A DNA stretch of 42,812 nucleotides from Candidatus Woesearchaeota archaeon (lineage in GTDB: Archaea; Nanobdellota; Nanobdellia; Woesearchaeales; UBA10216). This document shows positions 3,277 through 21,363 of this stretch, in pieces. The stretch is taken from positions 1-42,812 of the forward strand of contig JAGVYT010000013.1 in NCBI GenBank assembly GCA_018303115.1, read 5' to 3'. The notes under the pieces are model-generated. The model was given only the letters and a program-made list of their open reading frames with translations, was not told the DNA's origin and did no database searches. A program made the position numbers and the translations under genes. Positions within the stretch are counted from its first letter, which is position 1. Each line of letters starts with the position of its first letter.

Positions 3277-3309
3277 ACTTATTAAACTTTGTTTTCTGTA
3301 AAGGGCTGC

Positions 3310-5678: not shown

Positions 5679-6364
5679 TGACGGTAACTACCATTTTTAA
5701 GAAAAGCAATGATGAATTAAGTAAAGCTGCCGTTAATATTTTAGTGGAAGTTGTTAACAAATTACTGCAGCAGCAGAAACAAGTTGTATTGGCTATTCCC
5801 GGAGGAAGAAGTGTTGCGGCCATCTGGAAATTGCTTGCTTCCGACCACAGAATACCTTGGAGAAAAATTCAGGTTTTAATGGCTGATGAGAGGGTTGTTC
5901 CGATAACAAGTGGGCAAAGCAATTACCGCTTAGCTTATGATACTTTTCTGAAGAAATTAATTGAAGCAGGAGAGCTGCCTGAGGAAAACCTGCATCCGTT
6001 TATTGCTGATAAAGGCAGCAGCAACTACAATAAAGAATTAAAAAAATACGGAGGAAAGCCGGACATGATAATCCTTAGCATCGGCGAGGACGGGCACGTA
6101 GGCGCGCTATATCCCAACCATCATTCTGTAAAAGACAGTTCAGAAGGTTACATAGCAGTGGACGACTCCCCCAAGCCGCCTCTGGAACGCATCACAATGT
6201 CAAGGAAAACAATGCTGAAGGCGAAAACTGCACTGCTGCTCTTCATTGGAGAGGCGAAAAGGGAAGCTTACGAGAAATTCAAGGCAGGTGACGATATTAT
6301 CGAATGCCCTGCAAGGCTTGCAAAGCAGATTAAGGACTCTTATGTGCTGACAGACCTTAAATGA
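5678..6364 (+). CDS. pgl: 6-phosphogluconolactonase
   Basis: PGGRS, DERVVP, IGEDGHVGALYP, PKPP..RIT; TAATG overlap with gnd. Confidence 0.92.
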   Translation: MTVTTIFKKSNDELSKAAVNILVEVVNKLLQQQKQVVLAIPGGRSVAAIWKLLASDHRIPWRKIQVLMADERVVPITSGQSNYRLAYDTFLKKLIEAGELPEENLHPFIADKGSSNYNKELKKYGGKPDMIILSIGEDGHVGALYPNHHSVKDSSEGYIAVDDSPKPPLERITMSRKTMLKAKTALLLFIGEAKREAYEKFKAGDDIIECPARLAKQIKDSYVLTDLK

Positions 6365-7821: not shown

Positions 7822-7965
7822 TTAAATGCTTCCTTTGTTTTCCAGCGCATGCTTAGTTATCTCCAAACTACAGCTGCTGTGCTTCCTGCAGAAGTCTTCG
7901 CATTCCTTCGCCCATTTTTCCTCCGTGTAGTGGAAGTTGCACACTGAGCATTGGTAGGTTTTCAT
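7822..7965 (-). CDS. 47-aa Cys-rich metal-binding protein (missing from ORF track)
   Basis: MKTYQCSVCNFHYTEEKWAKECEDFCRKHSSCSLEITKHALENKGSI; starts 1 nt after the copA stop. Confidence 0.85.
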   Translation of the reverse strand: MKTYQCSVCNFHYTEEKWAKECEDFCRKHSSCSLEITKHALENKGSI

Positions 7966-7966
7966 T

Positions 7967-10645
7967 TTATAGCTCATTTAATTCCGCCCTGTCCTTCTTT
8001 TTCTTTTTCCATTTGAAGCCTTTTACAGCCCCTAACAGGGAAACATGTGGTGAAGTTTTGCTCGCCTTGAACCTTTTCATCAGCAGCGAGTTTGTAAGCA
8101 CGCTCACAGAGCTGAAAGCCATTGCTATCCCCGCTATTATCGGGTTAAGGAGAAAGCCGGTGAATGGGAACAGTATGCCTGCTGCTATGGGAATCCCGGC
8201 AGAATTGTAGAAGAAAGCCCAGAAGAGGTTTTGCTTTACCTTCCTTAAGGTGTAGCGGCTTAGCTCTATTGCGGTTATGACGTCCCGCAGGTCATTCTTT
8301 ACCAAAACAATATCGCCAGTTTCTATCGCAACGTCAGTTCCTGAGCCGATGGCTATTCCGATGTCTGCCTGCGCAAGGGCAGGGGCATCGTTTATTCCGT
8401 CTCCGACCATTGCCACTTTCAGCCCTTTCTGCTGCAGCTTCTTTATCTCATTTTCCTTCTCCTCTGGAAGCACTTCTGCAAGCGCCTCGTCTATTCCGAG
8501 CTGCTTTGCAATGGCAGCTGCTGTTTTCCTGTTATCGCCTGTCATCATCATTACCTTTTTTCCCATTCTGTGCAGCTGCTCAACAGCTTCTTTGGAATAG
8601 TCGCTAACAGTGTCGGCTACAGCTATGATTCCGGAAGTCTTTTTCCCGGCTGCAACCAGCATTACGGTTTTTCCTTCGCTTTCAAGCTTTTGCAGAGAGC
8701 CCTCAACGTTCTTGGTTTCCACTCCGAACTGCTCCATAAGCTTCCTGTTCCCCACAAGCACCTTTTTACCATTTATGACTGCGCTAACGCCTTTTCCTGT
8801 AATGGAGTTAAAATTTGTAATGCGGGGCAGCTTTAGCTTTTCCTTTTCAGCCGCCTTTACAATAGCGGCGCTTAATGGGTGCTCTGACTTTTTCTCGACA
8901 GCCGCTGCCAGCTTTAGTATTTCATTCCTGCTGCCATTGAATGCTGCCACGTCAGTGACTTCGGGCATTCCCCTTGTAAGTGTCCCTGTCTTGTCGAATA
9001 CTACCGCATCTACTTTTCCTGTTTTTTGCAGCGCCTCTGCGGTCTTGAAAAGTATCCCGTTTTGCGCTCCAAGCCCTGAACCAACCATTATCGCGGTTGG
9101 GGTTGCCAGACCGAGGGCGCATGGACAGGCAATGATTAAAACTGCAATGAATATTGTTAAGGCAAAGACAAATCCGAATCCCATGAAGTACCACACTAAG
9201 AAAGAAACTATTGCGATGACAACCACTGCCGGAACAAAGTAGGAAGAGATTGCATCTGCAAGTTTCTGGATAGGGGCTTTGCTTCCCTGCGCCTCCTCAA
9301 CGAGTTTTATTATCTGGGCAAGAACAGTGTCTTTCCCTACTTTCGTTGCCTTGAACATGAAGCTTCCTGTCTTGTTTATTGTAGCGCCGATTACAGCGCT
9401 GCCTTTTGCTTTCTCTACAGGGATGCTCTCCCCGGTAACCATTGACTCGTCAACAGATGAGTGGCCTTCCGTTACAGTGCCGTCAACAGGTATTTTCTGG
9501 CCAGGCTTGGCTATGACAATGTCTCCAACAATGACTTCGTCAATACCCACTTCAACCTCCTTTCCTTTCCTTAAAACAACTGCCTTTTTTGCCTGCAATC
9601 CGAGAAGCTTCTTTATCGCTTCTGAAGTTCTGCCTTTTGCTATGGCTTCTAAATATCTGCCGAGCAGGATGAACGCTATGAGAAGTCCTGCAATTTCGTA
9701 ATAGAGGTTGCTGTGGCCGTAGCCTGTGCTGCCGCTCCACATAATGATTGAGAGAACGAGGCTGTAAAGGTATGCTGCTCCTGTTCCAACTGCTATGAGC
9801 GTGTCCATGTTTGCAGTTCTGGTGCGGATAACTGAGGAAATTCCTTTGGTGAAGAATTCGTAACCTGCAAGCATTATCGGGGTTGTGAGGAGGAACTGGA
9901 TTAAGGCGATGTTTTCCTCAACAAATACGGGTATTGGCATGCCGAATACTGAACCCATGGCAAAGTAGAGCAGCGGCAGGCCGAAAACTATTGCCGCAGT
10001 CAAACGGAGGCGGAGCGAGCGCAGCTCTTTTTCCCGTGCTTTTTTTTCAACATCAGCGTCCTCGGAATATTCCTCCGGCTCATAACCGGCATTCCTTATT
10101 GCTTGCATTATTTTTTCAATTGTTGTCTGTTTCGGGTCATAAATTACAATGGCTCTTTCGATGGCAAAGCTTGCCTCAACGTTCAGAACTCCAGCTTGCT
10201 TTTTCAGGCTTGACTCAATGATTCCTGCGCAGTGCTGCGAATTCATCCCCCTTACTTTGAGGGTTATTTCAGAACCTTTCCCGCTGCTCTTGATTATGTC
10301 ATAGCCTGCTTTCTTAACAGCCGCCTCAATTGCCTGCTCGCCGGTTTTTGCAGCATCGTATTCAACGGATGCCTTTTCAGAAGCGTAGTTGACATTGGCA
10401 TTCACTACTCCGGGAACTTTTTTCAGTTCCTTCTCTATTCTTACGGCGCATGAAGCGCAGTGCATCCCTTCTATGGGCAGTATTTTTTTGGTCGCGGTTT
10501 TAGTTTCCTTACCGAGAAATTTATCGTGGCAGCTTTTGCTGCAGAAATAATGCTTCTTTCCATTCTTTACAGCAGAAAACTTGGCTGTCTTATCATCAAC
10601 CTCCATTCCGCAGCTCGGGTCTTTTGATTTCATTTTCACTTTCAT
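7967..10645 (-). CDS. copA: Cu(I)-translocating P1B-1 ATPase with YHS/TRASH domain and two HMA domains
   Basis: DPSCGM..FCSKSC, GMHCASC, degenerate GMNSQHC, TGES, CPC, DKTGT, HP, GDGIND, YN and MAFSS. Confidence 0.97.
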
Positions 10646-11533
10646 TTATACTCCGCAACTTCCCCCTCCCTCGGCTTTTGGCAGCAGTCCCTGCTGCCGT
10701 AAAGGCTCGTAAACATTAGCGCTCCAGCCGGAAGAGCTGGAGTATTTGCCGCCCATTATTTCTTCAGCATTGCTGAAATAATCCTTGCCGTTCAGGTTGT
10801 ATAAAGTTGCAGTTAACAGATACTGCTGCGGGAACCAGAGTGTGTTCGCCTGCAGTGCCAGGGTATAGAGTTCTTCCTCACTCATTCCCTGAGATGCTCC
10901 AAGCTCAAGAAGGGCAAGCATCGCTGCCCCGTGATTGCAGTCAGGGAAAGCGCTTGGGTTATTGCAGCACGGCCTGTAGCTGTTTTTTGATACTTTTTCC
11001 ACAAGTGATTGCTGCTGCGGGGTAAGCTTTATCAGCTCAAGCTTATTAAAGTAAGTCATTGCATCCTTCTTGCCAAGCGTCCAGCCGCCTGTTGCTGCAA
11101 GGTTTGCAACGCCCTGGTATTGTGCAGTCTCGTCAAGTATGGGGTTCTTGTTTGCAATGCCCAGCGGCCAAAGGATATTAAGGAGGAAATTTGCGTTTGC
11201 AGGGGTTAAAATAAGCTGCTCGCTGCTATGTTCTGTCAGCAGCTTGAGCTGCTCCACTGTAAGGCCGCCCCTTGCCCCGTAAAGCTGCCTGAATTTCTCA
11301 AAGTCTATTGCGCCGCTTTCAACGAGCTTCGGAATCACGTTTCCAAGCGCTATTTCAGTCTCAAAACCGTCCTCAGGGAAGATTCTGGATTTCAGTCCTG
11401 CAACGTCATCTGAAGCCTGCGCTTCCGAAGGGCTTTTTTCAAGATTTAAAAGAAAAGCTGCGGCAATAATAAAAAAAAGCGCTGCCGCATAATAGGGGCT
11501 TTTTTTAATTAGTGCAAAGGTAGAACGTTTCAT
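10646..11533 (-). CDS. membrane-anchored Cys-motif protein (CcmH-like helical domain)
   Basis: N-terminal TM; RPCCNNPSAFPDCNHG; C-terminal GGGSCGV; abuts copA. Confidence 0.8.
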   Translation of the reverse strand: MKRSTFALIKKSPYYAAALFFIIAAAFLLNLEKSPSEAQASDDVAGLKSRIFPEDGFETEIALGNVIPKLVESGAIDFEKFRQLYGARGGLTVEQLKLLTEHSSEQLILTPANANFLLNILWPLGIANKNPILDETAQYQGVANLAATGGWTLGKKDAMTYFNKLELIKLTPQQQSLVEKVSKNSYRPCCNNPSAFPDCNHGAAMLALLELGASQGMSEEELYTLALQANTLWFPQQYLLTATLYNLNGKDYFSNAEEIMGGKYSSSSGWSANVYEPLRQQGLLPKAEGGGSCGV

Positions 11534-11619
11534 TATTCAAGGCTCAATGCAGCTTCTTTTTAAGTTTTTTTATATGCTGCCAACTCCAAGGCTTGTCAGC
11601 AGCCCGAGCAGAATTTTGC

Positions 11620-11655
11620 CTACTTTCCTCCGTCATCTCCGCAGCATCCCATCAT
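11620..11655 (-). CDS. candidate micropeptide (M)MGCCGDDGGK
   Basis: Strong SD GGGGGTGA directly upstream, CC motif, co-oriented in the cop operon. Confidence 0.4.
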   Translation of the reverse strand: MMGCCGDDGGK

Positions 11656-11672
11656 TCTCACCCCCGCATACT

Positions 11673-12062
11673 TTATAGGGAATTGTCAATGATTTCCTTA
11701 ACATCTTTCTCAGCTTCAAATGATTCTTCTTTGCCGACTTCCGGAAAGAATTGCGACATAATAGCAGGTTTCATCCCTGCAATCTTTACTTTCCCTTTCT
11801 CCTCAATGACATTTATTTTGCATGGCATGCACAGGGATGTTAACCTGTTCTTGTTCAGGAAATGGTTTGCATGCCTGCCCGAACAAATTTCTATTATCTT
11901 CAACGGCTTTTGTTCAAATCCTTTTGCAGCCAGCCTTTCCTTAACGTCATAAATCTGGAATATAGACCAGCCTTTTTGTTCAGCTGCTTTCAAAACAGAC
12001 ACGACTGCGTTATCAAAACTTTTATCAGTTTCAACAATGTATGCAAAATCTTCTACTTTCAT
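11673..12062 (-). CDS. DUF302 domain protein
   Basis: ETDKSFD..GW..IIEICS..MPCKINV pattern; typical of copper gene neighbourhoods. Confidence 0.88.
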   Translation of the reverse strand: MKVEDFAYIVETDKSFDNAVVSVLKAAEQKGWSIFQIYDVKERLAAKGFEQKPLKIIEICSGRHANHFLNKNRLTSLCMPCKINVIEEKGKVKIAGMKPAIMSQFFPEVGKEESFEAEKDVKEIIDNSL

Positions 12063-12066
12063 GTTT

Positions 12067-12600
12067 TTACCTTTTCTTTTTAGACAAGCCCCTCCACATT
12101 TTTATTGCCCATAGGTAAACCAGTATTATCAACCCAACCAGCAGCATTACATAAAGGACATTTACAAAATTCCCGTATCCGTAACCGTATCCCCAGCTTC
12201 CCATCACGCCCTGCATCATGTTATTCATCCCCCCACTGCCTTTTATTGAGGAAGCGCCCATCATTCCGCCATTCCTTCCCATCATCATGTTCATCATTCC
12301 AGAGGACATTGCTGTTCTATCGCCGCAATAAAATGACTGTGCCATTCTCATGTGCATAAGCCTTAAAGTCTCAGAGCCTTCCCCCCCCATTAGCTCATCC
12401 ATTGCCTCATGCTCCTCTCCGGGGTGCATCTGCTCCATGTAATACTCGCCGATAAGTTCGAGCTGCTGCTCTGTAAGCTCGCTGCAGGGGGCCTTGCCTG
12501 CTATGATTTCCTCCGCTTTTTCAAAATCCCCATCAGAATGGGCTATTGCGGCAGCCGCCATCAGCAACAGCGCCAGTGCAACAGCCAATATTTTCATCAT
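12067..12600 (-). CDS. exported Met/His-rich membrane-anchored protein
   Basis: Signal peptide, MEQMHPGEEHEAMDELMGG, Met-Gly-rich tract, C-terminal TM. Confidence 0.8.
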   Translation of the reverse strand: MMKILAVALALLLMAAAAIAHSDGDFEKAEEIIAGKAPCSELTEQQLELIGEYYMEQMHPGEEHEAMDELMGGEGSETLRLMHMRMAQSFYCGDRTAMSSGMMNMMMGRNGGMMGASSIKGSGGMNNMMQGVMGSWGYGYGYGNFVNVLYVMLLVGLIILVYLWAIKMWRGLSKKKR

Positions 12601-12622
12601 GTTTCCTCATTACGTATCCGTT

Positions 12623-12636
12623 TATGATATATCGTA
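12623..12636. promoter_or_regulatory. candidate PadR operator in divergent promoter
   Basis: Near-palindrome TATGATATATCGTA next to TTTAAAT at ~12650. Confidence 0.45.
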
Positions 12637-12677
12637 TTATGCAAAACTATTTAAATGTTTCTGTATTTCCAGCCGTC

Positions 12678-13094
12678 ATGGAGGAAATAAAGGTCACTAA
12701 TCTTGTAAAGTTTTATACGCTGCTTCTTCTGAAAAGAAGGCCCATGCACGGCTACGAGCTGATTAAGGAGCTTGAAAGATGCATGACAAAAAACATAAGC
12801 GCCAGCCACGTCTACCCTTTCCTCAAGACGCTGCAAAAAAACATGCTGATAGCCCTTAAGGAATCGGGCAAGAGGAAAAAAAAGCAGTATAAACTGACTA
12901 AAGAAGGTGAAAAGCTTGCGCATAAGCTAATTAATAGGTTTACAGAGATGGTGGAGATAAGCATAAACCCAAGGATAAGGGCATGCGCTCACTGCGGCTG
13001 CAAGATAGCTTCAGGAGGCCATAGGGAAAGAATTAAAAACGTGCTGCTTACCTTCTGTTGCAGCAGGTGTGCAGCTTCGTATAGGAAAAAATGA
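12678..13094 (+). CDS. PadR-family regulator with C-terminal TRASH-like metal sensor
   Basis: PMHGYELIK..VYPFL..KKQYKLTKEG; CAHC...FCCSRC; ATG at 12678. Confidence 0.88.
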   Translation: MEEIKVTNLVKFYTLLLLKRRPMHGYELIKELERCMTKNISASHVYPFLKTLQKNMLIALKESGKRKKKQYKLTKEGEKLAHKLINRFTEMVEISINPRIRACAHCGCKIASGGHRERIKNVLLTFCCSRCAASYRKK

Positions 13095-13576
13095 AAAAGC
13101 AACAGCAGATAGGATACGGGCTAATAGGGCTTTCAATAGTGCTGCTTGTTGTTTTATCATTTGTAAAGGCAGATGTCGACAGACAGGGCGCTTTCCTGTG
13201 CGAAGCGGCAAGGGACAACCCGTCAGTTGACATGGGAGAATGCCCTGCGCACAAGAGCAGCACGTCCTGGTTTATAGTGGCTGCTTTCGGATTAGCTTTT
13301 CTTGTATTGGGTGCAGGCATCTACACGCTTTTTACTTCAAAAGAAATTGAAGCTAAAAAGGAATTTAAGGAAATAGATGAGTCAAAGCTCGGCGAGGAGG
13401 AAAAGAGGGTTTACGGGCTGCTTAAAAGCGGTAATGGCGCGAGCTACCAGACAGACCTTATAAAAGAGACCGGCTACAGCAAGGTCAAAATAACGCGAGT
13501 CCTTGACAAGATGGAGTCCAAGGATATTGTTGAGAGGAAAAGACGGGGCATGACAAACATAATAGTTCTTAAGTGA
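13091..13576 (+). CDS. membrane-anchored winged-helix regulator
   Basis: Two TM helices flanking a C..CPAH loop; C-terminal YQTDL..SKVKITRVLDKME..RKRRGMTN. Confidence 0.85.
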   Translation: MKKQQQIGYGLIGLSIVLLVVLSFVKADVDRQGAFLCEAARDNPSVDMGECPAHKSSTSWFIVAAFGLAFLVLGAGIYTLFTSKEIEAKKEFKEIDESKLGEEEKRVYGLLKSGNGASYQTDLIKETGYSKVKITRVLDKMESKDIVERKRRGMTNIIVLK

Positions 13577-13588
13577 AACTAGTTTCAC
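13573..13588. promoter_or_regulatory. perfect 16-bp palindrome, candidate operator
   Basis: GTGAAACTAGTTTCAC upstream of an AT-rich box and the GGAGGT SD of 13652. Confidence 0.55.
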
Positions 13589-13651
13589 CGTTACTTAATA
13601 AAGGGGTTTCAGGTTTTCTACCAGTAATTAAGCGTTTTGGAGGTAATAATT

Positions 13652-14281
13652 ATGAAAATTGAAAGACTAAGCATGTTGCTGCTGGTTGCGGCTTTGGCGG
13701 TTGTTTTGTTCAATTCCTTCCAGATAAGCCAGATGAAAGGAAGCAGCAGCATAACTGGTGCTGCGGTAATAAAAGTGAGTGAACAGGACGTTATACCGAA
13801 AGGGGTTCCAAAAATATACGGGAGCGAGCTGGGCGTAAGTTTTGATGACATTAGTTCTTTGAACCAGCAGCTTGCTGATGCCACTATAAACAAGCTTGGC
13901 GCCCTTGACCGCTCTATAGAGCTTCGGGGCGGGCAACTGCAGCGCTACATAGCAATTGCCTCAAAGATATCGTGCGAATACTGCTGTGGCGCCGCATCTA
14001 TAATATTCAGCAACGGGCAGGCAGCCTGCGGCTGCGCTCACAGCTATGCAATGAGGGGGGTTGCCAAATACCTTATTGAAAACCATGGTGATGAATACAG
14101 CGATGATGAAGTGCTTGAGGAGCTTGGGAAGTGGAAAACCCTGTTCTTTCCCTCCCAGTTGAGCCAGAAGGCAGAGGTGCTTTCCGAGAACGGGATTGAG
14201 CTGAATTACATCAATCTTGCCTCAAACAAATACCGCGGCATAGAACAGGGTGCAGGCGGCGGAATGGTTGGAGGTTGCTAA
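13652..14281 (+). CDS. exported CcmH-like Cys protein ending GMVGGC
   Basis: SD GGAGGT, N-terminal TM, CEYCC..CGCAH. Confidence 0.82.
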   Translation: MKIERLSMLLLVAALAVVLFNSFQISQMKGSSSITGAAVIKVSEQDVIPKGVPKIYGSELGVSFDDISSLNQQLADATINKLGALDRSIELRGGQLQRYIAIASKISCEYCCGAASIIFSNGQAACGCAHSYAMRGVAKYLIENHGDEYSDDEVLEELGKWKTLFFPSQLSQKAEVLSENGIELNYINLASNKYRGIEQGAGGGMVGGC

Positions 14282-14282
14282 A

Positions 14283-14558
14283 ATGGAGAAAGAATCAGGG
14301 ATAAAAATAAGCGGGAAGGGGCTGGCCAGCTACGCGATGCTGATAGTTGCGGTGTTGCTGCTTGTTGTTTCTGTTGTGCAGGCATACCAGATTGCAAGTA
14401 TCGGGAAAGCTGAAAACACTGACGCGAGCAGTGTGCTTGATACTGCTGGCTGGACAGAAGATGAGAAAATGAATTACGAAATGCACGGGATAATACCGGC
14501 GCGTGTTAAGAGCAGCTCGTCCAGCGCATCATCAGCAGGTATGGTCGGAGGCTGCTGA
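14283..14558 (+). CDS. small membrane-anchored protein ending GMVGGC
   Basis: ATG 1 nt after the previous stop; TM; EMHG; Ser linker. Confidence 0.8.
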   Translation: MEKESGIKISGKGLASYAMLIVAVLLLVVSVVQAYQIASIGKAENTDASSVLDTAGWTEDEKMNYEMHGIIPARVKSSSSSASSAGMVGGC

Positions 14559-14559
14559 T

Positions 14560-15036
14560 GTGAGGCTTTTACTTTTTTTGCTGATAACAACAATTGTAGC
14601 AGTGGCTGGCTGCGCTTCTAAAACAGCGACTGATGGGGGAGAGTTCGGAGAGATTGAATTCAAAAGCGCAGAAAACAAGGCCACAATCTTCAAATCTGCA
14701 AGTTGCGGCTGCTGCACAAATTATGTTGCTGGGCTTGAAAGAAAGGGCTTTGAAGTTGAGACAAGGAACATGAATGATTTGTCATCAATCAAGGCCAGGT
14801 ATGATATTCCCAGAACTATGGAAAGCTGCCACACAACAGTTGTAGGCGATTATTTCATAGAGGGGCATGTCCCTTTTGAGGCTGTCAGCAAGCTTCTTCA
14901 GGAAATGCCTGCTGTTGACGGAATAGCGCTGCCTGGCATGCCGGAAGGCTCTCCGGGAATGGTTGGCAAAAAGAGGGGTGCGTTTATAGTTTATTCGTTG
15001 TCAAACGGCAAGCATTCTGAGTTCATAAGAATTTAA
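14560..15036 (+). CDS. DUF411 (CopG-like) metal-binding lipoprotein
   Basis: VAGC lipobox, SCGCC, SCHT, EGHVP, PGMPEGSPGM; GTG start inferred. Confidence 0.9.
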   Translation: MRLLLFLLITTIVAVAGCASKTATDGGEFGEIEFKSAENKATIFKSASCGCCTNYVAGLERKGFEVETRNMNDLSSIKARYDIPRTMESCHTTVVGDYFIEGHVPFEAVSKLLQEMPAVDGIALPGMPEGSPGMVGKKRGAFIVYSLSNGKHSEFIRI

Positions 15037-15045
15037 GCGGGTCGA

Positions 15046-15582
15046 ATGAAAAAAACTGCTGTTATAATCGGGATTGTTTTAAGCTTGTTAACATCAATAG
15101 AAGGGGCTGTGGCTCATTGCCCTTTATGCACTGCCGGCATAGGCGCTGCAGCAGTTTCAGCAAGGTATTTCGGGCTTGATGCAAGCATCATAGGGGTGTT
15201 TGTCGGCGCTTTTGGGGTTTCGACAGGGCTTTGGATTGGAAGAAAAATAAAAAAGAAGTATATACGGTTTCAGCTGCCGCTCATAGTGTTGTCGTCTTTC
15301 GCATTAACGGTTCTGCCTTTGATGGGCCTGATAGACGAGCAGCTGGCCTTGCGCATGCTATGGGTTGGTTCGCCAGACACAGTTCTTAACAGGGTTTACT
15401 TTATTGACAAGATGTTGTTCGGCAGTGTTCTGGGGGCTGTAGTGTCGCTGGCTGCATTTTGGCTTCATCTTTATATTAAAAAAGCAAAAGGCAGGGTGGT
15501 TGTTCCTTTTCAGGGGGTTATCTTTACTCTTCTTTTGTTAGTTTTAACAGGAGCGGCTTTATTCTTTGCTGTAGGTGATTGA
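15046..15582 (+). CDS. membrane protein with HCPLC motif
   Basis: Signal-like N-terminus then AHCPLC and ~4 TM helices. Confidence 0.8.
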   Translation: MKKTAVIIGIVLSLLTSIEGAVAHCPLCTAGIGAAAVSARYFGLDASIIGVFVGAFGVSTGLWIGRKIKKKYIRFQLPLIVLSSFALTVLPLMGLIDEQLALRMLWVGSPDTVLNRVYFIDKMLFGSVLGAVVSLAAFWLHLYIKKAKGRVVVPFQGVIFTLLLLVLTGAALFFAVGD

Positions 15583-15583
15583 G

Positions 15584-16084
15584 ATGGAAAAAGACGTTGA
15601 AAAATGGCTGAAAAAGGTTGAGGAAGTGAAGAAAGGGAATGTTGATTTGTCAAGGGATGAGGACTTGAGCCTGGCTCTGATGAATCTGATAAGCCTGGAA
15701 GAGCACTTTTATTTTACAGCGATGAAAACGGATAACTCAAAATATCTGGAAATGCTTGATTCTGTGAGAGCCCTAAGAAAAAAATTGTTGAGAAAAATTG
15801 TTACCAACCCAAAGGGTGAGGAGTGGTGCATAAGCAAACATTTGCTGGCTGCAAGCATGCGATTAATGGAGGTTGGCACAAAGGAGCTTGCCAAAAAGAA
15901 TGAAAATGAAGCTAACGTCTTTTTTAAGGCAGCTTTTGACCTGCACTCGCTGTTTTTCGCAATCAACACCAACCTTGTTGAAGCAAGAAAATTGGAGATT
16001 GAAACGGATAAATCTTCTGAAAATAATTTGATGAGCAGCTTTTCACGAATAATGAAAAAGATAATAGACTGCTGCAAGGAGTGA
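15584..16084 (+). CDS. helical cytoplasmic protein ending DCCKE
   Basis: SD AGGTGA; LEEH, WCISKH and CC motifs. Confidence 0.8.
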   Translation: MEKDVEKWLKKVEEVKKGNVDLSRDEDLSLALMNLISLEEHFYFTAMKTDNSKYLEMLDSVRALRKKLLRKIVTNPKGEEWCISKHLLAASMRLMEVGTKELAKKNENEANVFFKAAFDLHSLFFAINTNLVEARKLEIETDKSSENNLMSSFSRIMKKIIDCCKE

Positions 16085-16093
16085 GGTTGATTT

Positions 16094-16663
16094 ATGGAGA
16101 ATAGAAAAAAGGGGGCTGTTGTTAAAGCCGTATTTATTGGTTTACTGGCAGGCATTGCGTTGCTTTCTGTTTATTTCGTAGTAGTTTCACTGGCAAACTC
16201 TGTTGAGCATGCTGTTCAGGAGTTTTTCCGCATATGGCAGTGGATAACCGCCCTGGTGGCTGGTTTTGGAATCCAGGTGGGGCTTTACGCTTATATCCGG
16301 GAAGCTATTAAAATCAGGAAGCTTGCTGGCGCAACGACTTCTATCACCGCTGCTGGAGGCGTATCAACCAGTTCGATGCTTGCCTGCTGCGCACACCACT
16401 TAACAGACGTGCTTCCGATAATTGGAATTTCTGCAGCCAGCATATTCCTGAATAAATACCAGGAATCTTTCTTGTTAACAGGTGTTCTGTCAAATTTAGC
16501 GGGCATTCTCATAATGCTTAGAATAATGCAGACAAACCGCCTCTACAATGAGCAGAAAGGGGCTTTAAGGGCAATATTCAAAGTTAATCTTAGGAAGGTT
16601 TTGTATTTTGCCATACCTGCAAGCTTAATACTGATAGCGATAAGTTTTATCAAGACTCTTTAA
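16094..16663 (+). CDS. membrane protein with intramembrane CCAHH motif
   Basis: ~5 TM helices; MLACCAHH; SD GAGGT. Confidence 0.82.
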   Translation: MENRKKGAVVKAVFIGLLAGIALLSVYFVVVSLANSVEHAVQEFFRIWQWITALVAGFGIQVGLYAYIREAIKIRKLAGATTSITAAGGVSTSSMLACCAHHLTDVLPIIGISAASIFLNKYQESFLLTGVLSNLAGILIMLRIMQTNRLYNEQKGALRAIFKVNLRKVLYFAIPASLILIAISFIKTL

Positions 16664-16673
16664 GGAAGCAAAA

Positions 16674-17096
16674 ATGAACGCAAAAATGTTGGTGTTATCA
16701 TTTATTGTTGTTATCGCTATTAGCGGCTGCAGCTCAATTCGGACAACTTCAGGCCAAAACGTGCAGATAAGCTCGTCAGAGTCTGCTATGGCATTTGAGG
16801 AAAAAACAAGCGAAGGCGAAGTAACGGTAAGTTTAATTCCTAAACATTATCAGGGAGTTCTTAAAGTGGATTACATCATAAACACCCATACCGCTGATTT
16901 GAGCAGAATAAACCTGCAGGAGCAGGTTTCTCTGAATACAAACGGCAAAAATATAAAACCCGTAAATTCGCCGTTGCTGAGCGGCCACCACGATTCTGGA
17001 ACGCTTGAATTTAATGTTGAAAAAATCAGCCTGCCTTTTGAAATAATTATGAAAAACATTCCTGATGTTAAGCTTAGGAAGATTATATGGGAATAA
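16674..17096 (+). CDS. His-motif lipoprotein
   Basis: ISGC lipobox; NTHT, SGHH. Confidence 0.78.
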   Translation: MNAKMLVLSFIVVIAISGCSSIRTTSGQNVQISSSESAMAFEEKTSEGEVTVSLIPKHYQGVLKVDYIINTHTADLSRINLQEQVSLNTNGKNIKPVNSPLLSGHHDSGTLEFNVEKISLPFEIIMKNIPDVKLRKIIWE

Positions 17097-17151
17097 TCAG
17101 TAATTAAAACATAAATTATTTAACAGGTAACTTTTGCCATAACAGGCATTA

Positions 17152-17757
17152 ATGGTTGCTTGCAAGGATTGCGGAAAGGAATTTGGGCAGCGCGAAAGCA
17201 TGGAGCAGCACTATGCTGCCAAGCATGATAAAGCCCCGTCTAACATTCCGCATTCTGCTCATAAAAAATCAAATAAAAAGCTTAGCTTCGCAGCAGTTGC
17301 CGTTGCAGCTGTTTTAATTATTGGCTATTTTGTATTTTTCAGTGACGGTGGTAGTGAGGCAAAGCCGTTAATTACAGGAAATTCAGACTACGAAATAAAC
17401 CTGGATGAAGTTCCGAAAAGGCCGATTCACTGGCACCCCAAGCTTACGATAATAATTAATGGGGAGCAGCGGCAGATACCAAGAAATCTCGGTGTTGGCA
17501 GTGTGGAGTATCCAGTGCATACGCATGAAGACGTTCCAATACTTCACTACGAAAGCAACAGGCCGACACCTGAAACAATGGTTTTAGGGTATTTTTTCCA
17601 TACAGTGTGGAGAAAGACGTTTGACAACAATTGCATCTTTGAATACTGCAACGGCCAGGATGGCAACCTTACAATGAGCGTGAATGGCGAGCCGAATCTT
17701 CAGTTTGACAAGTACATACCAAAGGATGGGGACGACATAGTAATCAGGTTTGAATAG
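17152..17757 (+). CDS. C2H2 zinc finger + TM + extracellular His-rich domain
   Basis: CKDC-x12-H-x4-H; TM; IHWH, VHTHE..LHYE; C..EYC. Confidence 0.82.
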   Translation: MVACKDCGKEFGQRESMEQHYAAKHDKAPSNIPHSAHKKSNKKLSFAAVAVAAVLIIGYFVFFSDGGSEAKPLITGNSDYEINLDEVPKRPIHWHPKLTIIINGEQRQIPRNLGVGSVEYPVHTHEDVPILHYESNRPTPETMVLGYFFHTVWRKTFDNNCIFEYCNGQDGNLTMSVNGEPNLQFDKYIPKDGDDIVIRFE

Positions 17758-18255
17758 TCAGGGCTTTTCCAGAAGGGTGTCCATAATGTTTTCTTTCAGC
17801 ATTACCCTGCGTATCTTCCCATGAGGAATAATTTCCACAAGATTCTTATTGCGCATGTTTCGCAGCAGCCTGAATGCCTTCACTCTGTTCATTCCTGGCA
17901 ATCGTGATATTTCTGCCTGCGTGATTAAGCCTTTTTTCTGCATGAGAAACTGGATTATGCCCTTTTCAGCAGGGCTCAGGAACAGGAACACAGTCTCAAG
18001 TATGCTTTTTGAGGTTTTTTTCTTTTTCATTATTTCATGGTAGGAGAGGCTTGACCACAGGAAGCCGTAAAGAACGGATATGAGTATGAGCGCAATAAGT
18101 ATTACCATGTGATACTGTATTGCAAAGTTTACTATCAGGTTTGGGTTTGATATGTTCTTGTTGGCATCTACAGTTGCCGCAACCCAGAACACTGAAAGCA
18201 GCAGTACCGAGAGAATAACAAATCCAGTCTTTGTGTAAAAGCGTATATTTCGCAT
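17758..18255 (-). CDS. membrane-anchored winged-helix regulator (paralog of 13091)
   Basis: Two TM helices then ITQAEISR..NRVKAFRLL..HGKIRRV. Confidence 0.82.
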   Translation of the reverse strand: MRNIRFYTKTGFVILSVLLLSVFWVAATVDANKNISNPNLIVNFAIQYHMVILIALILISVLYGFLWSSLSYHEIMKKKKTSKSILETVFLFLSPAEKGIIQFLMQKKGLITQAEISRLPGMNRVKAFRLLRNMRNKNLVEIIPHGKIRRVMLKENIMDTLLEKP

Positions 18256-18258
18256 TTT

Positions 18259-18309
18259 TGAAATAATGTTTCAGTAGTATTTAAATATTGTTTCATCTAC
18301 TGAAACAAT
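18259..18309. promoter_or_regulatory. TGAAAY/GTTTCA inverted-repeat cluster around a TATA box
   Basis: TGTTTCAGTAG (18267-18277) / CTACTGAAACA (18297-18307); ATTGTTTCA-N5-TGAAACAAT; TATTTAAATA between. Confidence 0.6.
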
Positions 18310-18381
18310 CAGGTTTAAAGGAAAACTTTTTAAAACACAGGAGAACAGCGTGAAGGATTCGGAAAACGGAGGAGATGTTGA

Positions 18382-19137
18382 ATGGCTGAACATGAAAAGC
18401 ACCAGCATGAAAAGCGGGTAGATGATGAAGAAAGCTTTAAGATAAAGAAGGTTACGTTATGGCAGGCAATCTCAGGTGTTCTGGGGGTTCTGCTCATTAT
18501 TTCCATATATACAGGGGGTTTTTGGTTTGGCAGCGAAGGCAGCGCAGCCAATGCCCCGCCTGCCGCAGCTGCGCCTAGCGCTCCTAGCGGCGAGCAGGCA
18601 GCCCCTGCAGGGGCAGAGGTTGAGGTTGGCGATGCGCCTACAATGGGCAGGGAGGATGCCCCGGTTACGTTGATTGAGTTTTCAGACTTCCAGTGCCCGT
18701 TCTGCGGCAGGCATTTTTCGCAGACACATCCGCAGATAAAACAGTATTACATTGACACCGGAAAGGTAAGGTTTGTCTACAAGCACTTCCCGCTTGATAG
18801 CATCCACCCGCAGGCTACGCCTGCTGCGCTTGCTTCAGAGTGCGCAAAGGAGCAGGGCAAGTTCTGGGAATACCACGACATTATTTTCCAGAACCAGCAA
18901 TCGCTTGGGGATGCCAGCTATAAGCAGTGGGCTGCCCAGCTTAGCCTTGACACCGCACAGTTTAACGACTGCTATGACAGCCAAAAATACCTTTCAGATG
19001 TGAGAAGCGACTTGCAGGAAGGCTCAGCCGCCGGTGTTAGAGGAACGCCTGGCTTTTTCCTTAATGGCCAGCCAATAAGCGGGGCGCAGCCCTTCAGCGT
19101 TTTCCAGCAGGCCATTGAAGCTGAGCTTTCAGGCTGA
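18382..19137 (+). CDS. DsbA/BdbD-family thioredoxin-fold protein
   Basis: EFSDFQCPFC, HFPL..HP.A, GVRGTP, GAQP; N-terminal TM. Confidence 0.93.
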   Translation: MAEHEKHQHEKRVDDEESFKIKKVTLWQAISGVLGVLLIISIYTGGFWFGSEGSAANAPPAAAAPSAPSGEQAAPAGAEVEVGDAPTMGREDAPVTLIEFSDFQCPFCGRHFSQTHPQIKQYYIDTGKVRFVYKHFPLDSIHPQATPAALASECAKEQGKFWEYHDIIFQNQQSLGDASYKQWAAQLSLDTAQFNDCYDSQKYLSDVRSDLQEGSAAGVRGTPGFFLNGQPISGAQPFSVFQQAIEAELSG

Positions 19138-19160
19138 ATTTAGGTATACGGAGGGATGGA

Positions 19161-19682
19161 ATGCTGGGCAAAGAGGATTTCAGGCTGCGTTGGAATTTTG
19201 TTAAAGGCGTGTTTGCAGGCAGGGGCTATGCGCTGCTTTTCGTTGTTTTGCTTGCGTCATATCTCGGATTTAACTTCTGGATTAACAGATTTTACGAGAC
19301 ACTGCCCACACTTCTCAGCTTAAGGCTTTCTGTGATTGCTCCTTACGCGGCAGGCACAGTCCTAATTAGCCTTCTTGTTGCGCTTAACATTACTGTAATA
19401 ATTTACAAGCTGAGGCAGGTCATGGTGTTTGGGAAAGAGGTTGGCGTTACCGCTGTTGGCATGTTTGGAGGGACGCTTGGAGGAGCCTGCCCCGGATGCT
19501 TTGTAGGGGTTTTTCCTGCAGTGGCAGGGCTGTTTGGAGTTACAGCAACCCTCAGTTCGCTGCCATTCCTTGGCTTTGAGATTCTGATTCCAACTCTGCT
19601 GGTAGCTCTGGTTGCGCTTTACCTTGTTGCAAAGCCCCTGACGTGCGCTCCGGATAACGCTTCAAAGAAGAAAAACAACTGA
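19161..19682 (+). CDS. membrane protein with intramembrane CPGC
   Basis: ~4 TM helices; GGACPGC; SD GGAGG. Confidence 0.8.
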   Translation: MLGKEDFRLRWNFVKGVFAGRGYALLFVVLLASYLGFNFWINRFYETLPTLLSLRLSVIAPYAAGTVLISLLVALNITVIIYKLRQVMVFGKEVGVTAVGMFGGTLGGACPGCFVGVFPAVAGLFGVTATLSSLPFLGFEILIPTLLVALVALYLVAKPLTCAPDNASKKKNN

Positions 19683-19686
19683 TTCC

Positions 19687-20286
19687 ATGGAGTCCATCGA
19701 AATTAGGAAATCACACTTTTACGTCCTTGTTTCAGTGGTCGCTGTAGTTTCATTGGCTGCGCTTTTCTTTTTCAGTGGCAGTAATTCGCAAGAGCTGGGA
19801 GCTATAAGTTCCGGAATAACTCTTGATGAAAGGTTTGAAGTTCTCAGCAATTCAAGGACAAGCTTGTGCGCTGGCCCGGAGTTCATAAATGGTAAACAGG
19901 ATGATGAGAGCTTGCAGGGCGCTTGCTGCTCTGCCATGGACTTCCACCGCTATTCCGAGCAGGTTGAGGGGCTTAAGAAGTATGCGTCTTTTGATGCAAT
20001 ACCGCCTGACCCTTACGATATTCCTGTGCCTCTTGCAAATAGGTTGCTTGACTACCAGAAAACGATTTCGCTGACTATTGAGCAGCAGGAAATATATGAC
20101 GGAGCTGTTAAGCTCTCGCATGAAGGCGGCCCCTGCTGCTGCAAGTGCTGGAGATGGTATGCGTTTGAGGGGCTTGCCAAATACCTCATTACCGAGCACG
20201 GCTTTAACGCCTGGCAGATTGCTGAGGTGTGGGATTTGGAAGATGGCTGTGGGGGGGAGGCTCATGCTGGGGAAGCGCACGCATAG
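19687..20286 (+). CDS. membrane-anchored Cys-rich protein
   Basis: TM; GACCS; GPCCCKC; GLAKYLITEHG; DGCGG and His tail. Confidence 0.82.
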   Translation: MESIEIRKSHFYVLVSVVAVVSLAALFFFSGSNSQELGAISSGITLDERFEVLSNSRTSLCAGPEFINGKQDDESLQGACCSAMDFHRYSEQVEGLKKYASFDAIPPDPYDIPVPLANRLLDYQKTISLTIEQQEIYDGAVKLSHEGGPCCCKCWRWYAFEGLAKYLITEHGFNAWQIAEVWDLEDGCGGEAHAGEAHA

Positions 20287-20391
20287 GGCTGACGGCATTG
20301 GGATACTGGAAGTCCGTGATGGCAAGATTGCCAAAATTCCGAAAGAATTAAATAAGATTGGCTTGTGATGTTTCAGGAAGGTGGTGCTAAA

Positions 20392-20914
20392 ATGAAAAGT
20401 TACCTGTATATTTTAGGATTGCTTGCGGTTCGCTGGTTGCACTTATGCGGCCCAAGAAACCGGTAAATCTGCTGAAGCGGTAAATGAAATTGTGACTGAA
20501 GATTCTACTACTGATGTTTCTGAAGCTCCTAAGGATAATGATGTCGGAGCTGCTGAAGGAACTACGGAAACTGAAACAGACGCCACAGCAACAGACGTTA
20601 ATCCGGAAACCGTGCAGGGGGTTGTTGGCGCTCAGCCAGAAGTGAAGGAATTTACAATGACAGCGAAGCGATGGGAGTTTGAACCGGAAGTGATAAGGGT
20701 TAACGAGGGCGACACTGTCAGGTTATTCATAAAAAGCATTGACGTTGCTCACGGCTTTGCAGTCCCTGATTTTGGTGTTAACGAGCGCCTTAACCCGGGA
20801 CAAACTGTTAAAGTAGAATTTGTTGCAGACAAAACGGGAATATTCACTTTCTTTTGCTCTGTGCAGTGCGGCTCAGGGCACAGCAGCATGAATGGGCAGC
20901 TGATAGTGGAATGA
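20392..20914 (+). CDS. CuA-type cupredoxin lipoprotein, frameshifted near 20428
   Basis: DVAHG..CSVQCGSGH..M CuA ligands; signal MKSYLYILGLLAV (ATG 20392 with SD) is out of frame with FAGC. Confidence 0.85.
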
Positions 20915-21363
20915 TGAAAGCAGTTGACAGCTGCAAAAGTTACGCTCCGGCGCTTGTAAGAATAGCAGTCAGCCTTGTTTTCCTCTGGTTTGGGGTAAGC
21001 CAGCTTGTTAACCCTGAATCTTTTCTTGGCTATATCCCTGGCTGGTTATACCCGCACCCCTCGGAAATGCAGCACGCCCATCCACTGCAGTTTCTCCACA
21101 ACATTTCAGGGCTGGCTCACTGGGTGATAATGGGCAATGGCTTCTTTGAGACTTTTTTCGGAGCCTTTTTACTTCTCGGCTTTTTTACAAGAATCGCCGC
21201 TTTTTTGCTGTCGTTCCATCTGGTTGCAATAGCCCTCGTCCTTGGCTACAATGACATAGCTGTGAGGGATTTGGGGTTGTCTGCCGTGACATTTTCGGTT
21301 TTTCTAAACGGCCCTGACAGGCTTTGCACTGGTAAAAGGTTAAGGAAGTTAAACGTTTTTTAA
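20911..21363 (+). CDS. DoxX-family membrane protein
   Basis: RIAVSLVFLWFG, E..LLLGFFTR, RDLGL; His-rich loop; ATGA overlap. Confidence 0.88.
   Translation: MMKAVDSCKSYAPALVRIAVSLVFLWFGVSQLVNPESFLGYIPGWLYPHPSEMQHAHPLQFLHNISGLAHWVIMGNGFFETFFGAFLLLGFFTRIAAFLLSFHLVAIALVLGYNDIAVRDLGLSAVTFSVFLNGPDRLCTGKRLRKLNVF

Follow-up and report, generated by a model that had tools for sequence, protein, structure and literature searches.

The window analysed here, 42,812 nucleotides of contig JAGVYT010000013.1 from a Candidatus Woesearchaeota archaeon (assembly GCA_018303115.1), carries a cluster of 21 plausible open reading frames (ORFs), g01 to g21, at positions 7822–21363. This cluster probably represents a chromosomal copper-homeostasis supra-operon of a DPANN (Diapherotrites, Parvarchaeota, Aenigmarchaeota, Nanoarchaeota and Nanohaloarchaeota) archaeon of the Woesearchaeota type, whose three modules recombine among relatives. 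The proteins that it encodes most likely bind copper and keep up thiol redox in the envelope, a function coupled to efflux. The preliminary description of the locus had counted about 21 genes, all of which were found at the same positions, and had taken them for one system. Instead, the cluster is a mosaic of three recombining modules and not one machine. Module 1 (g01–g05) is the efflux module, module 2 (g06–g15) comprises a sensor, surface Cys proteins and the membrane pair g11–g12, and module 3 (g16–g21) comprises a DsbA-like protein, g18 and a cupredoxin. In other loci the modules are found separately and in other orders. A genome of the same genus (G003) has 16 of the 21 genes in one cluster, with a different module order.

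Gene content, motif conservation, synteny, gene fusions and the homology of the named members are the established part of this picture. Synteny was assessed around g12. A g12 profile search of all species genomes gave 599 matched stretches, of which 577 were confirmed and the best 80 loci kept. These are mostly from Woesearchaeota, some from Aenigmatarchaeota and Micrarchaeota and two from Magasanikbacteria; gene presence was called by tblastn at E 1e-4, and many of the contigs are truncated. g11 is present in 79 of the 80 loci, g08 in 58, copA in 41, g07 in 40, the DUF411 gene in 38 and g09 in 31, followed by g14 (27), g05 (25), the PadR gene (25), g13 (24) and g01 (19). The genes for DUF302 (6), DsbA (6), g15 (4), the cupredoxin (4), g18 (3) and DoxX (3) are rarer. 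Where the full 10-kb flanks are available, copA is found in 13 of 18 loci, and at least one recognisable copper gene is found in 62 of the 80. For a genome of about 1 Mb in which copA occurs once or twice, we estimate a chance of about 2–4% that a random 20-kb window contains it; the linkage of copA, the PadR/TRASH-like regulator and the Met-rich proteins is far above this estimate. The preliminary description had set beforehand, as a test of its proposal, whether the hypothetical genes accompany copA elsewhere and whether their Cys and His residues are conserved. The proposal withstood both, the first by the copA counts given above and the second by Cys/His residues that are invariant in every alignable family (g01, g05, g07, g08, g10, g11, g12, g13, g14, g15 and g18).

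The density of Cys motifs in the cluster exceeds chance. For ORFs of at least 80 amino acids and the motifs CC, CxC and CxxC, 13 of 20 cluster ORFs are positive, compared to 202 of 1019 ORF proxies in the rest of the 993.5-kb genome (Fisher p 1.8e-5), and no other 13.6-kb window of the genome reaches the same count of ORFs with Cys pairs. The metal-ligand motifs listed in the preliminary description are indeed present, with HCPLC in g11, CCAHH in g13, HWH in g15, GHH in g14 and a Met content of 13.6% in g05. Most of its named members were also recovered with Pfam and NCBIfam (CopA, DUF302, DUF411/CopG, DsbA, the CuA cupredoxin, DoxX and PadR), the exception being TRASH with 24.7 bits against a cut-off of 27. 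For 12 unnamed proteins, Pfam searched to E 10 gave nothing credible, with a weak DUF5714 match on g19 at E 0.086.

Within module 2, the residues A23, H24, C25, P26 and C28 of g11 are invariant in 19 sequences, and g11 has no Pfam match even at E 10. An exhaustive profile search places 528 representative clusters in its family. Six of the best 150 g11 representatives carry an N-terminal extension of 150–180 residues, which results in the order exported glutaredoxin-like CxxC domain, transmembrane (TM) helix, CPxC domain. Weak Pfam matches are found on five of these six fused extensions, one of them above cut-off. In one further representative (P0214), a rhodanese domain forms the C-terminus. 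At the position of the His before CPLC, Ile, Val or Phe is found in the fused bacterial forms, and for this reason a histidine brace from an N-terminal His after signal cleavage was rejected as a family-wide feature.

g12 is the obligate neighbour of g11. Its nine aligned sequences share 49 invariant columns, including SLEEH, WC.SKH and the C-terminal CC. The AlphaFold2 (AF2) model is a helical bundle of modest confidence, with a predicted local distance difference test score (pLDDT) of 68.4. VIA-align found only generic helical bundles for this model, with a top Z of 6.2 that is common to unrelated folds, and the Atlas returned for g12 only clusters labelled 'hypothetical protein'. The complex prediction for g11 with g12 has a score of 0.00, which is evidence neither for nor against binding.

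Outside the archaea, an even sample of 301 genomes of the Candidate Phyla Radiation (CPR) contains g12 relatives in 40. Of 30 CPR g12 loci, 24 have a recognisable g11 and 4 an adjacent copA. Directly upstream of g11, 9 of the 30 loci encode a small CP(H/N)C protein, and one more an HMA–DsbA fusion. Searched as a profile, the nine small proteins match structures of glutaredoxin, thioredoxin and DsbA, the best being a glutaredoxin at E 6.6e-5; Pfam alone supports the thioredoxin fold weakly, with one of the nine below E 1e-3. In one CPR locus (L181, 1498–2995), the gene after g12 encodes not g11 but a g13-like CC membrane protein, and copA is adjacent. g12 may serve more than one membrane partner.

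A thioredoxin-fold CxxC domain that is fused or adjacent to a membrane protein with an outward CxxC is the pattern of VKOR–thioredoxin, DsbA–DsbB and CcdA–ResA. Because g11 shows this pattern of fusion and adjacency, and because CopG takes the position of the thioredoxin partner, we read g11 as the membrane thiol-exchange partner of surface Cys proteins, and g12 as the probable cytoplasmic partner of g11. The g11 fusions, together with the position of g18 behind DsbA, point to thiol exchange at the membrane. We lean towards a reductive, outward electron flow through g11–g12, since g12 is an obligate cytoplasmic Cys protein, a DsbB is already present in the genome and DsbD_TM was not found at threshold. 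Neither g11 nor g18 has a Pfam match at E 0.01, and DsbB (PF02600), VKOR (PF07884) and DsbD (PF02683) do not match them at E ≤10 either. With hhalign, no significant homology was detected between g11 and g18 or between g11 and g13. The preliminary description had proposed membrane thiol relays of the cluster's own. Two independent lines support the partners that it implied, the glutaredoxin-like fusions of g11 and the place of g18 behind DsbA in 42 of 56 loci. The copper-specificity of g11–g12 did not hold up in the CPR loci, with copA in 4 of 30.

The position directly upstream of g11 is mostly held by genes for surface Cys proteins. In the 79 loci with g11, this gene encodes DUF411 in 35, g09 in 26 and g08 in 11 cases, together 72 of 79. 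g08 has 2086 relatives and no Pfam family, and its residues C113, E114, C116, C117, C131, G132, C133 and H135 are invariant in 26 sequences. For the AF2 model of g08 (pLDDT 88.2), VIA-align gave the periplasmic domain of CcmH as best match (2hl7_A, Z 6.0, root-mean-square deviation 2.8, 76 of 82 residues), with the next match at Z 4.0. For the same model, Foldseek gave no PDB hit at E ≤0.001, and PF03918 (CcmH) does not match g08. The g08 profile aligned by hhalign to E. coli CcmH has a probability of 0.9% and E 0.058, with C113/C116 still placed on the CxxC of CcmH. We regard the CcmH resemblance, which comes from a structural model, as a lead and not as established membership.

g08 has two distant paralogues in the cluster. 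hhalign to the g08 profile gave a probability of 95.7% with E 8.5e-9 for g19, and of 76% with E 2.3e-5 for g03, where CC and C-N-H fall onto C116/C117 and C133/H135. According to the paralogue alignments, the motif common to g03, g08 and g19 is CC...C-x-H and not CxxC, which looks more like a metal site than like a pure redox pair. PDB profile searches with g12, g08 and g14 gave nothing usable.

The C-terminal ending (M/Q)(V/A)G(G/S/A)C, MVGGC in g08 and g09, recurs in these loci. It is terminal in 29 of 29 g09-family ORFs of the 80 loci. The same ending is found on another 28 small ORFs that have an N-terminal anchor and a low-complexity linker; many of them contain ETYEEMMxRMHPxQ, a motif that resembles MeQMHPG of g05. 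In total, 93 of 7981 ORFs have the ending. At least one such ORF is present in 55 of the 80 loci, and 77 of them end at most 2.5 kb upstream of g11 on the same strand. Three genomes (G006, G011 and G012) have lost the tail of g08, and there an adjacent small protein carries it. We read the tail as a putative tethered Met/Cys copper ligand; it could instead be a covalent-modification site or a sorting signal.

g10 scores 83.1 bits for PF04214 (cut-off 27) and has E 7.5e-24 to the solved CopG structure 6WIS, on which CGCC, CHT, EGHVP and PGMP are aligned. In another genome (G005; L015, 2025–2885), a DUF411 protein is fused to a rhodanese domain. The rhodanese fusions to DUF411 and to g11 hint that certain forms of the module deal with sulfur or persulfide chemistry.

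In module 3, the DsbA-like g17 scores 125.4 bits for Thioredoxin_4 (PF13462), the family to which ScsC belongs, and 79.4 bits for DSBA (PF01323). The g18 family is small, with 66 proteins and no Pfam family, and its synteny was followed in 56 confirmed metagenome loci. DsbA lies directly upstream of g18 in the 42 loci mentioned above. In 13 of the remaining 14, g18 is at most about 700 nucleotides from the contig start (2.1 kb in L130), which leaves no room for a full DsbA; in the last (L166), no DsbA was detected in 6 kb upstream of g18. From this adjacency it follows that g18 is the regular membrane partner of this DsbA. Of the same 56 loci, 17 have a g07-like regulator ahead of DsbA and 13 contain copA; downstream of g18 come the cupredoxin in 9 and g15 in 7.

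The cupredoxin g20 matches COX2 (PF00116) with 45.4 bits (cut-off 22) and also the NosZ and CoxB CuA-domain models. Its CuA ligands are complete (H110, C145-x3-C149-x3-H153-x2-M156). g20 has 163 amino acids, and the NosZ models match it by their C-terminal segments only; with no COX1 match in the genome, it is unlikely to be a subunit of a cytochrome oxidase or nitrous-oxide reductase. All 13 homologues examined start with a hydrophobic signal-like segment, most with a G-C lipobox. In contigs of three other runs (X2, X3 and X5), eight extra letters after 20429 join the two g20 frames, so that the ATG at 20392 is in frame with the cupredoxin domain and a signal peptide that ends in a lipobox results. 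The g20 gene here has either a real 8-nucleotide deletion or an assembly error. The likely start of g21 is the ATG at 20911, which overlaps the g20 stop, and for both g09 and g21 the likely true starts are internal Met codons. Coordinates and layout of all features are given in Table 1.

Table 1. Features of the cluster and their positions in the window
Feature	Position	Strand	Description
g01	7822..7977	-	51-amino-acid cytoplasmic protein, five Cys, next to copA; no Pfam match
g02, CopA, Cu(I) P1B-type ATPase	7967..10645	-	N-terminal YHS, two HMA, E1-E2 ATPase, HAD
g03	10646..11533	-	N-terminally anchored exported protein, one TM; distant g08 paralogue, CC...C-x-H
g04, DUF302	11673..12062	-	PF03625, 47.7 bits; 6/80 loci
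g05	12067..12600	-	exported Met/His-rich protein, signal-like N-terminus, C-terminal TM anchor; 25/80 loci
g06, PadR-family regulator	12546..13094	+	Cys-rich TRASH-like C-terminal tail; divergent from g05
g07, membrane winged-helix regulator	13091..13576	+	TM, outside loop C...C-P-A-H, TM, cytoplasmic DUF7343 winged helix-turn-helix
g08	13637..14281	+	N-terminally anchored exported helical protein; C-E-x-C-C...C-G-C-x-H; MVGGC tail (14267-14281)
g09	14250..14558	+	small N-terminally anchored protein, low-complexity linker, MVGGC tail (14544-14558); likely start ATG 14283
g10, CopG/DUF411 lipoprotein	14503..15036	+	C-x-C-C, C-H-T, EGHVP, PGMP..SPGM; lipobox AGC
g11	15046..15582	+	membrane protein; invariant A-H-C-P-L-C after signal-like segment, then about four TM helices
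g12	15575..16084	+	cytoplasmic helical bundle; SLEEH, GEeWCiSKHLLA, C-terminal Cys-Cys; start overlaps g11 stop
g13	16094..16663	+	membrane protein; invariant C-C-x-H-H...D..P..G in TM region
g14	16674..17096	+	exported lipoprotein-like domain, T-H and G-H-H; C-terminal domain of g13 in most relatives
g15	17152..17757	+	C2H2 zinc finger in the cytoplasm, single TM, ectodomain containing I-H-W-H-P, P-V-H-T-H, L-H-x-E and two Cys
g16, second membrane-anchored winged-helix regulator	17758..18255	-	no Cys; divergent from g17
Palindrome, candidate operator	18287..18309		perfect, 9-nucleotide arms, 5-nucleotide spacer; g16/g17 divergent intergenic region
g17, DsbA-like	18382..19137	+	membrane-anchored thioredoxin fold, active site C-P-F-C, one N-terminal TM
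g18	19161..19682	+	membrane protein; invariant G-G-A-C-P-(G/S)-C in TM, conserved C-terminal Cys
g19	19687..20286	+	N-terminally anchored exported g08 paralogue (CC, CCCKC); 0/80 and 1/56 loci
g20, CuA-type cupredoxin lipoprotein	20392..20914	+	signal-peptide ATG 20392 out of frame with mature-domain ORF 20423-20914
g21, DoxX-family membrane protein	20854..21363	+	PF07681, 35.7 bits (cut-off 23.6); 3/80 and 2/56 loci

In the efflux module, CopA is assigned by 632.9 bits for TIGR01511 (cut-off 397), 197.5 for PF00122 and 148.1 for PF00702; the score on the Cu-type model TIGR01511 compares to 422.4 bits on the Cd-type model. The C507-P-C509 motif is inside the TM segment 493–511. HMA1 has CASC, and HMA2 (residues 125–190) has a single Cys with H-C-A-G in place of CxxC and may not bind Cu(I) in the usual way. 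At position 7995, in the Lys-rich C-terminal tail of CopA near the g01 overlap, six letters (in-frame) are absent from all four other runs. The neighbouring g01 has the pattern C-x2-C-x12-C-x3-C-x5-C with all five Cys invariant in 21 aligned sequences. It occurs in 19 of the 80 loci, mostly beside copA, and is a candidate small metal-binding partner or chaperone. For the DUF302 protein g04, a 78% identical copy is found in G003. g05 shares the conserved sequence C...QLE.IGeY.MeQMHPG..H with its relatives.

The three regulators of the preliminary description are g06, a PadR protein whose tail is TRASH-like, and g07 and g16, both winged-helix proteins anchored in the membrane. g06 scores 52.4 bits for PadR; its sub-threshold TRASH match is to TRASH_HVO_1752_C, in a tail with five Cys, and its true start is likely an internal Met codon at about 12678. 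In the 25 loci with PadR, the gene is nearly always on the strand opposite to g12. g07 matches DUF7343 with 49.7 bits and has two TM segments and the residues C37, C51 and H54 in a conserved loop motif; its start overlaps the g06 stop. g16 is related to g07 (blastp E 3e-5), with weak MarR_2 and DUF7343 matches under cut-off. Between g16 and g17, a TATA-like TTTAAATA adjoins the palindrome at 18287–18309, which was rejected as a shared operator, since 202 of 203 loci do not have it. Enrichment was seen for the 8-mer TGTTTCAG, with 9 matches against 2.4 expected, but half of its module 3 copies are inside genes.

Downstream of g12, M95, C98, C99, H101, H102, D105, P108 and G111 of g13 are invariant in 17 sequences, and T71, H72, G104, H105 and H106 of g14 in 20. 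g13 and g14 form a single protein in 11 of 17 aligned relatives, 17 of 24 g13-family ORFs have 278–327 amino acids, and the fusion is seen in G011 and G012. In one other family, the membrane domain to which the g14 domain is joined is a different one with a Cys motif. Neither the PDB nor Pfam yielded relatives of g14. With its Cys/His membrane domain and His-rich outside domain, g13–g14 is a candidate metal conduit or sensor. The hhalign comparison of g13 with g18 showed no significant homology (probability 1.8%), though the alignment is collinear and pairs the Cys motifs. In g15, 59 columns are invariant in eight sequences, including the zinc-finger Cys and His, IHWHP, PVHTH and the two outside Cys. 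Its zinc finger has a PDB profile hit at E 3.6e-5, and the Atlas holds for the g15 ectodomain only unnamed archaeal clusters ('hypothetical protein').

The host is a tiny archaeon from groundwater, and the cluster covers 13.5 kb, about 1.4% of its genome of 993,512 bases in 45 contigs with an estimated completeness of 96%. Relatives of the window proteins carry the labels Woesearchaeota, Nanoarchaeota and Aenigmarchaeota. Transcription is arranged in four blocks, g05 to g01 (-), g06 to g15 (+), g16 (-) and g17 to g21 (+), with gaps of 0–60 nucleotides or overlaps inside a block, the exceptions being g04/g03 (139 nucleotides) and g19 to the signal-peptide ATG of g20 (about 105 nucleotides). High-identity copies of the cluster are found in contigs from four other studies. 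A 7633-nucleotide contig from another study spans 12383–20015 with seven differences, and the gene order is therefore not an assembly artefact. The window contains no tRNA and no integrase, there is no compositional break at the cluster (GC content 0.42–0.49 within and 0.39–0.49 outside), and the flanks are housekeeping genes, with pentose-phosphate enzymes on one side and the small subunit of archaeal replication factor C (RFC) just downstream. We therefore treat the locus as a chromosomal gene cluster, and a mobile genomic island was rejected on the same observations. Just upstream of the cluster (3289–6364) lies a complete oxidative pentose-phosphate trio (glucose-6-phosphate dehydrogenase, a protein like 6-phosphogluconate dehydrogenase, and 6-phosphogluconolactonase), an NADPH source in a reduced genome. 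After the RFC gene, at 22816–24759, a highly charged coiled-coil-like protein of 647 amino acids is encoded, for which no Pfam match was found.

Elsewhere, the genome encodes a DsbB-family protein (C15:31071–31343, the only DsbB match in the genome), a second DsbA-like protein (C27:17019–17522), a second cupredoxin-like fragment at a contig end (C4:251–475, the only other cupredoxin-like match) and a second P-type ATPase (C21:19795–21741). At the threshold used, VKOR (PF07884), DsbD_TM (PF02683) and COX1 (PF00115) have no match in this 96%-complete genome.

In the mechanism that we propose, module 1 would provide cytoplasmic Cu efflux by CopA and the five-Cys g01, together with DUF302, the Met/His-rich surface protein and the g08 paralogue. 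Module 2 would begin with a cytoplasmic PadR sensor and a membrane regulator that exposes Cys-Cys-His in its outside loop. g08, g09 with its MVGGC tail and CopG/DUF411 would be tethered at the surface and bind or redox-cycle copper outside the membrane. g11, with its outward CPLC, and g12, with its cytoplasmic Cys-tailed bundle, would form a membrane thiol-redox unit that exchanges thiols and disulfides with the surface Cys proteins, keeping them fit to hold Cu(I). Downstream of this unit, g13–g14 would add a CCxHH membrane protein with a His-rich outside domain. Module 3, with the second regulator, the DsbA-like protein and its own CPxC partner g18, the CuA-type cupredoxin and DoxX, would most likely serve to repair or control thiols at the surface during copper stress and might mature the cupredoxin too. 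Copper as a ligand of the unnamed proteins, thiol exchange among them and the direction of electron flow are the steps of this mechanism that we infer.

A more far-reaching version of this proposal is possible, and we put it forward only tentatively. Here, g11–g12 and separately g18 would be the first members of new classes of thiol-redox machines in the membrane, not related to DsbB, VKOR or DsbD, in ultra-small archaea and bacteria without quinone-based electron transport. In this archaeon g11–g12 would be wired to copper, feeding electrons to or draining them from the CopG-type oxidoreductase and the MVGGC proteins. The flexible C-terminal tails of the latter would shuttle Cu(I) like swinging arms between the membrane and Cys clusters, and g13–g14 would be a further Cys/His conduit for copper in the membrane.

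The preliminary description had left the choice between copper handling and cuproprotein maturation. Copper handling is favoured here, and maturation is kept as one rival. In the maturation reading, which we hold to be unlikely, the cluster mainly delivers copper to, and readies the Cys ligands of, g20 and other surface cuproproteins. DsbA–g18 would then be TlpA-like, TlpA being known to reduce CuA cysteines, CopA would supply Cu(I) outside, and g08, g09 and CopG would be metallochaperones. The complete CuA ligands of g20, its place directly after DsbA–g18 here and in 9 of 56 g18 loci, and the surface location of its homologues (13 of 13 with signal-like starts, most with a lipobox) are in line with this function. 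CopA-dependent maturation of an extracytoplasmic cuproenzyme is described for Rhodobacter (in excerpts of PMC8456105), and TlpA-type membrane thioredoxins for aa3 oxidase biogenesis (in excerpts of PMC10907172). However, only 4 of the 80 g12-centred loci have the cupredoxin, so that module 2 is independent of it, and g20 is frame-disrupted in this assembly. With no COX1 and one other cupredoxin-like match there would be few clients for 20 genes, and CopG and Met-rich proteins are typical of resistance loci. A general thiol-redox system of the envelope, for oxidative folding or for the reduction and isomerisation of disulfides and loosely tied to copper, appears quite unlikely to us. It would make g11–g12 and DsbA–g18 housekeeping substitutes for DsbB, VKOR and DsbD without quinones, with copper genes adjoining because copper damages thiols. 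The 26 of 30 CPR loci without copper neighbour, often with a thioredoxin-like partner, fit such a system, as do the glutaredoxin–g11 fusions and the failure to find VKOR and DsbD_TM in the genome. DPANN and Patescibacteria are also reported to be without electron transport chains (PMC7507113, in part). In the archaea, however, the upstream partners of g11 are CopG/DUF411 (35 of 79) or MVGGC-tailed proteins (37 of 79) and not plain thioredoxins, the linkage to copA, PadR/TRASH-like and Met-rich genes is far above our own chance estimate, and the genome already has DsbB and a second DsbA-like protein. We further considered a detoxification relay whose substrate is not copper but another thiophilic metal or metalloid (Hg, As, Cd, Ag), with g11, g13 and g18 carrying it inward or outward by ligand exchange, as MerT, MerC and MerP carry mercury. 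The Cys pairs of the three proteins at or within TM segments and the ArsP permeases beside g11–g12 in two CPR loci would suit this relay, and so would the motifs of g18 and g13, which may resemble those of Mer transporters. Yet no cluster protein matches a Mer, Ars or Cad family in Pfam or NCBIfam, the pump is of the Cu type P1B-1 by its TIGR01511 score (632.9 versus 422.4 bits), and CopG, the CuA cupredoxin and the Met/His-rich motifs all indicate copper, which makes the relay very improbable.

Several observations weigh against the copper-homeostasis interpretation itself. For all unnamed genes it is drawn from sequence and neighbourhood. In CPR bacteria, g11–g12 is not copper-specific, and other neighbours there are ArsP permeases (two loci), DUF1573 proteins, a DsbD_2 protein and housekeeping genes. 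The absence of His before CPLC in the fused bacterial g11 forms means that this residue is not a family-wide ligand, and by hydropathy g11 has no Cys facing the cytoplasm, which leaves a simple Cys-to-Cys relay from g12 unexplained. The neighbourhood conservation expected in the preliminary description applies to most genes and not to g03, g16, g19 and g21, which are seldom in the neighbourhood (1, 1, 0 and 3 of 80 loci). Among the 80 archaeal loci, 18 have no recognisable copper gene, several of them on truncated contigs. These 80 are the top-scoring of 577 loci and come from related organisms; they are not independent, and their counts are descriptive, with no statistical test attached. In addition, the g20 frame is disrupted as described, the Z of 6.0 between g08 and CcmH is within the noise range of the tool for helical folds, and the palindrome at 18287–18309 is the sole exact match in the window and present in 1 of 203 loci.

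About ten conserved families of the cluster have no Pfam family and no solved relative (g01, the g03/g08/g19 superfamily, g05, g09, g11, g12, g13, g14, the g15 ectodomain and g18), and a testable hypothesis for every one of them follows from the neighbours CopA, CopG, DsbA and cupredoxin. Model bacteria have been studied in detail for copper defence and envelope thiol chemistry, DPANN and CPR scarcely. These two groups account for a large part of microbial diversity and, to our knowledge, include no cultured organism that serves as a genetic model. There is a substantial chance that g11–g12 and g18 are new classes of membrane thiol-redox proteins. If they were thiol-oxidoreductases, this would explain extracytoplasmic thiol chemistry without quinones, VKOR or DsbD, and the MVGGC-tailed proteins would represent a novel type of metal carrier, one that is tethered. 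For annotation, a block of hypothetical proteins in hundreds of species becomes recognisable as a copper/thiol module. A word-matching search of the open-access literature found no description of these families or of the module; such a search could miss other names.

Among known systems, the archaeal cop loci (CopR/CopT/CopA; CopR of Pyrococcus furiosus, partial text of PMC7830388) share with the cluster a P1B-type CopA beside a divergent, metal-sensing helix-turn-helix regulator with a TRASH-like tail and a small Cys-rich partner. In contrast to these loci, the regulator here is of the PadR type with a sub-threshold TRASH match, and about 15 further genes, mostly extracytoplasmic, are attached. 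We know of no archaeal cop loci that include these extra genes. For P. aeruginosa, CopG is reported to be a Cu-thiol oxidoreductase with a Cys-bridged Cu4 cluster (PMC8456105, excerpts). g10 is a clear homologue of CopG from bacterial cop/cus/cutFOG loci (6WIS), with the same CxCC, CHT and Met motifs and likewise in a copper locus. Unlike bacterial CopG, g10 is a lipoprotein of an archaeon without outer membrane and is encoded just upstream of g11–g12 (35 of 79 loci), a partnership that is absent from the CopG account as far as the excerpts of PMC8456105 go.

The closest functional analogy of module 3 is the Scs system, in which Dsb-like proteins are copper-induced and needed for copper resistance (PMC10907172, excerpts). 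In ScsABCD of Salmonella, Caulobacter and Proteus and in the copper defence by DsbC/DsbD, as far as described in these excerpts, a Dsb-like protein with a membrane partner is found beside efflux under envelope-sensing regulation, as it is here. The difference is that this genome has no DsbD/ScsB-type protein by PF02683 and only the ScsC-like half, g17; the regulators are one-component membrane winged helix-turn-helix proteins and not CpxRA, and the partners g18 and g11 are in no described family. In DsbA–DsbB, DsbA–VKOR and CcdA/DsbD with ResA/CcmG, a membrane protein with outward CxxC is combined with an exported thioredoxin fold, and fusions are known; the same is seen for g11, and for g18 with DsbA. 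The obligate cytoplasmic Cys-tailed partner g12 of g11 has no counterpart in those systems. In CcmH (2HL7), the periplasmic CxxC reductase of System I cytochrome c maturation, a bundle of three helices is anchored by a single TM, and the loop that connects helices 1 and 2 carries the CxxC (PMC3884852, excerpts). g08 is also single-TM-anchored and helical, and going by its model C113-x-x-C116 would be at the same position. In contrast to CcmH, it adds the invariant C117, C131, C133 and H135 and a C-terminal tail, and its paralogues g03 and g19 are without CxxC. By analogy, the logic of the cluster resembles that of the cop loci joined to a thiol defence of the Scs type, built largely from undescribed families.

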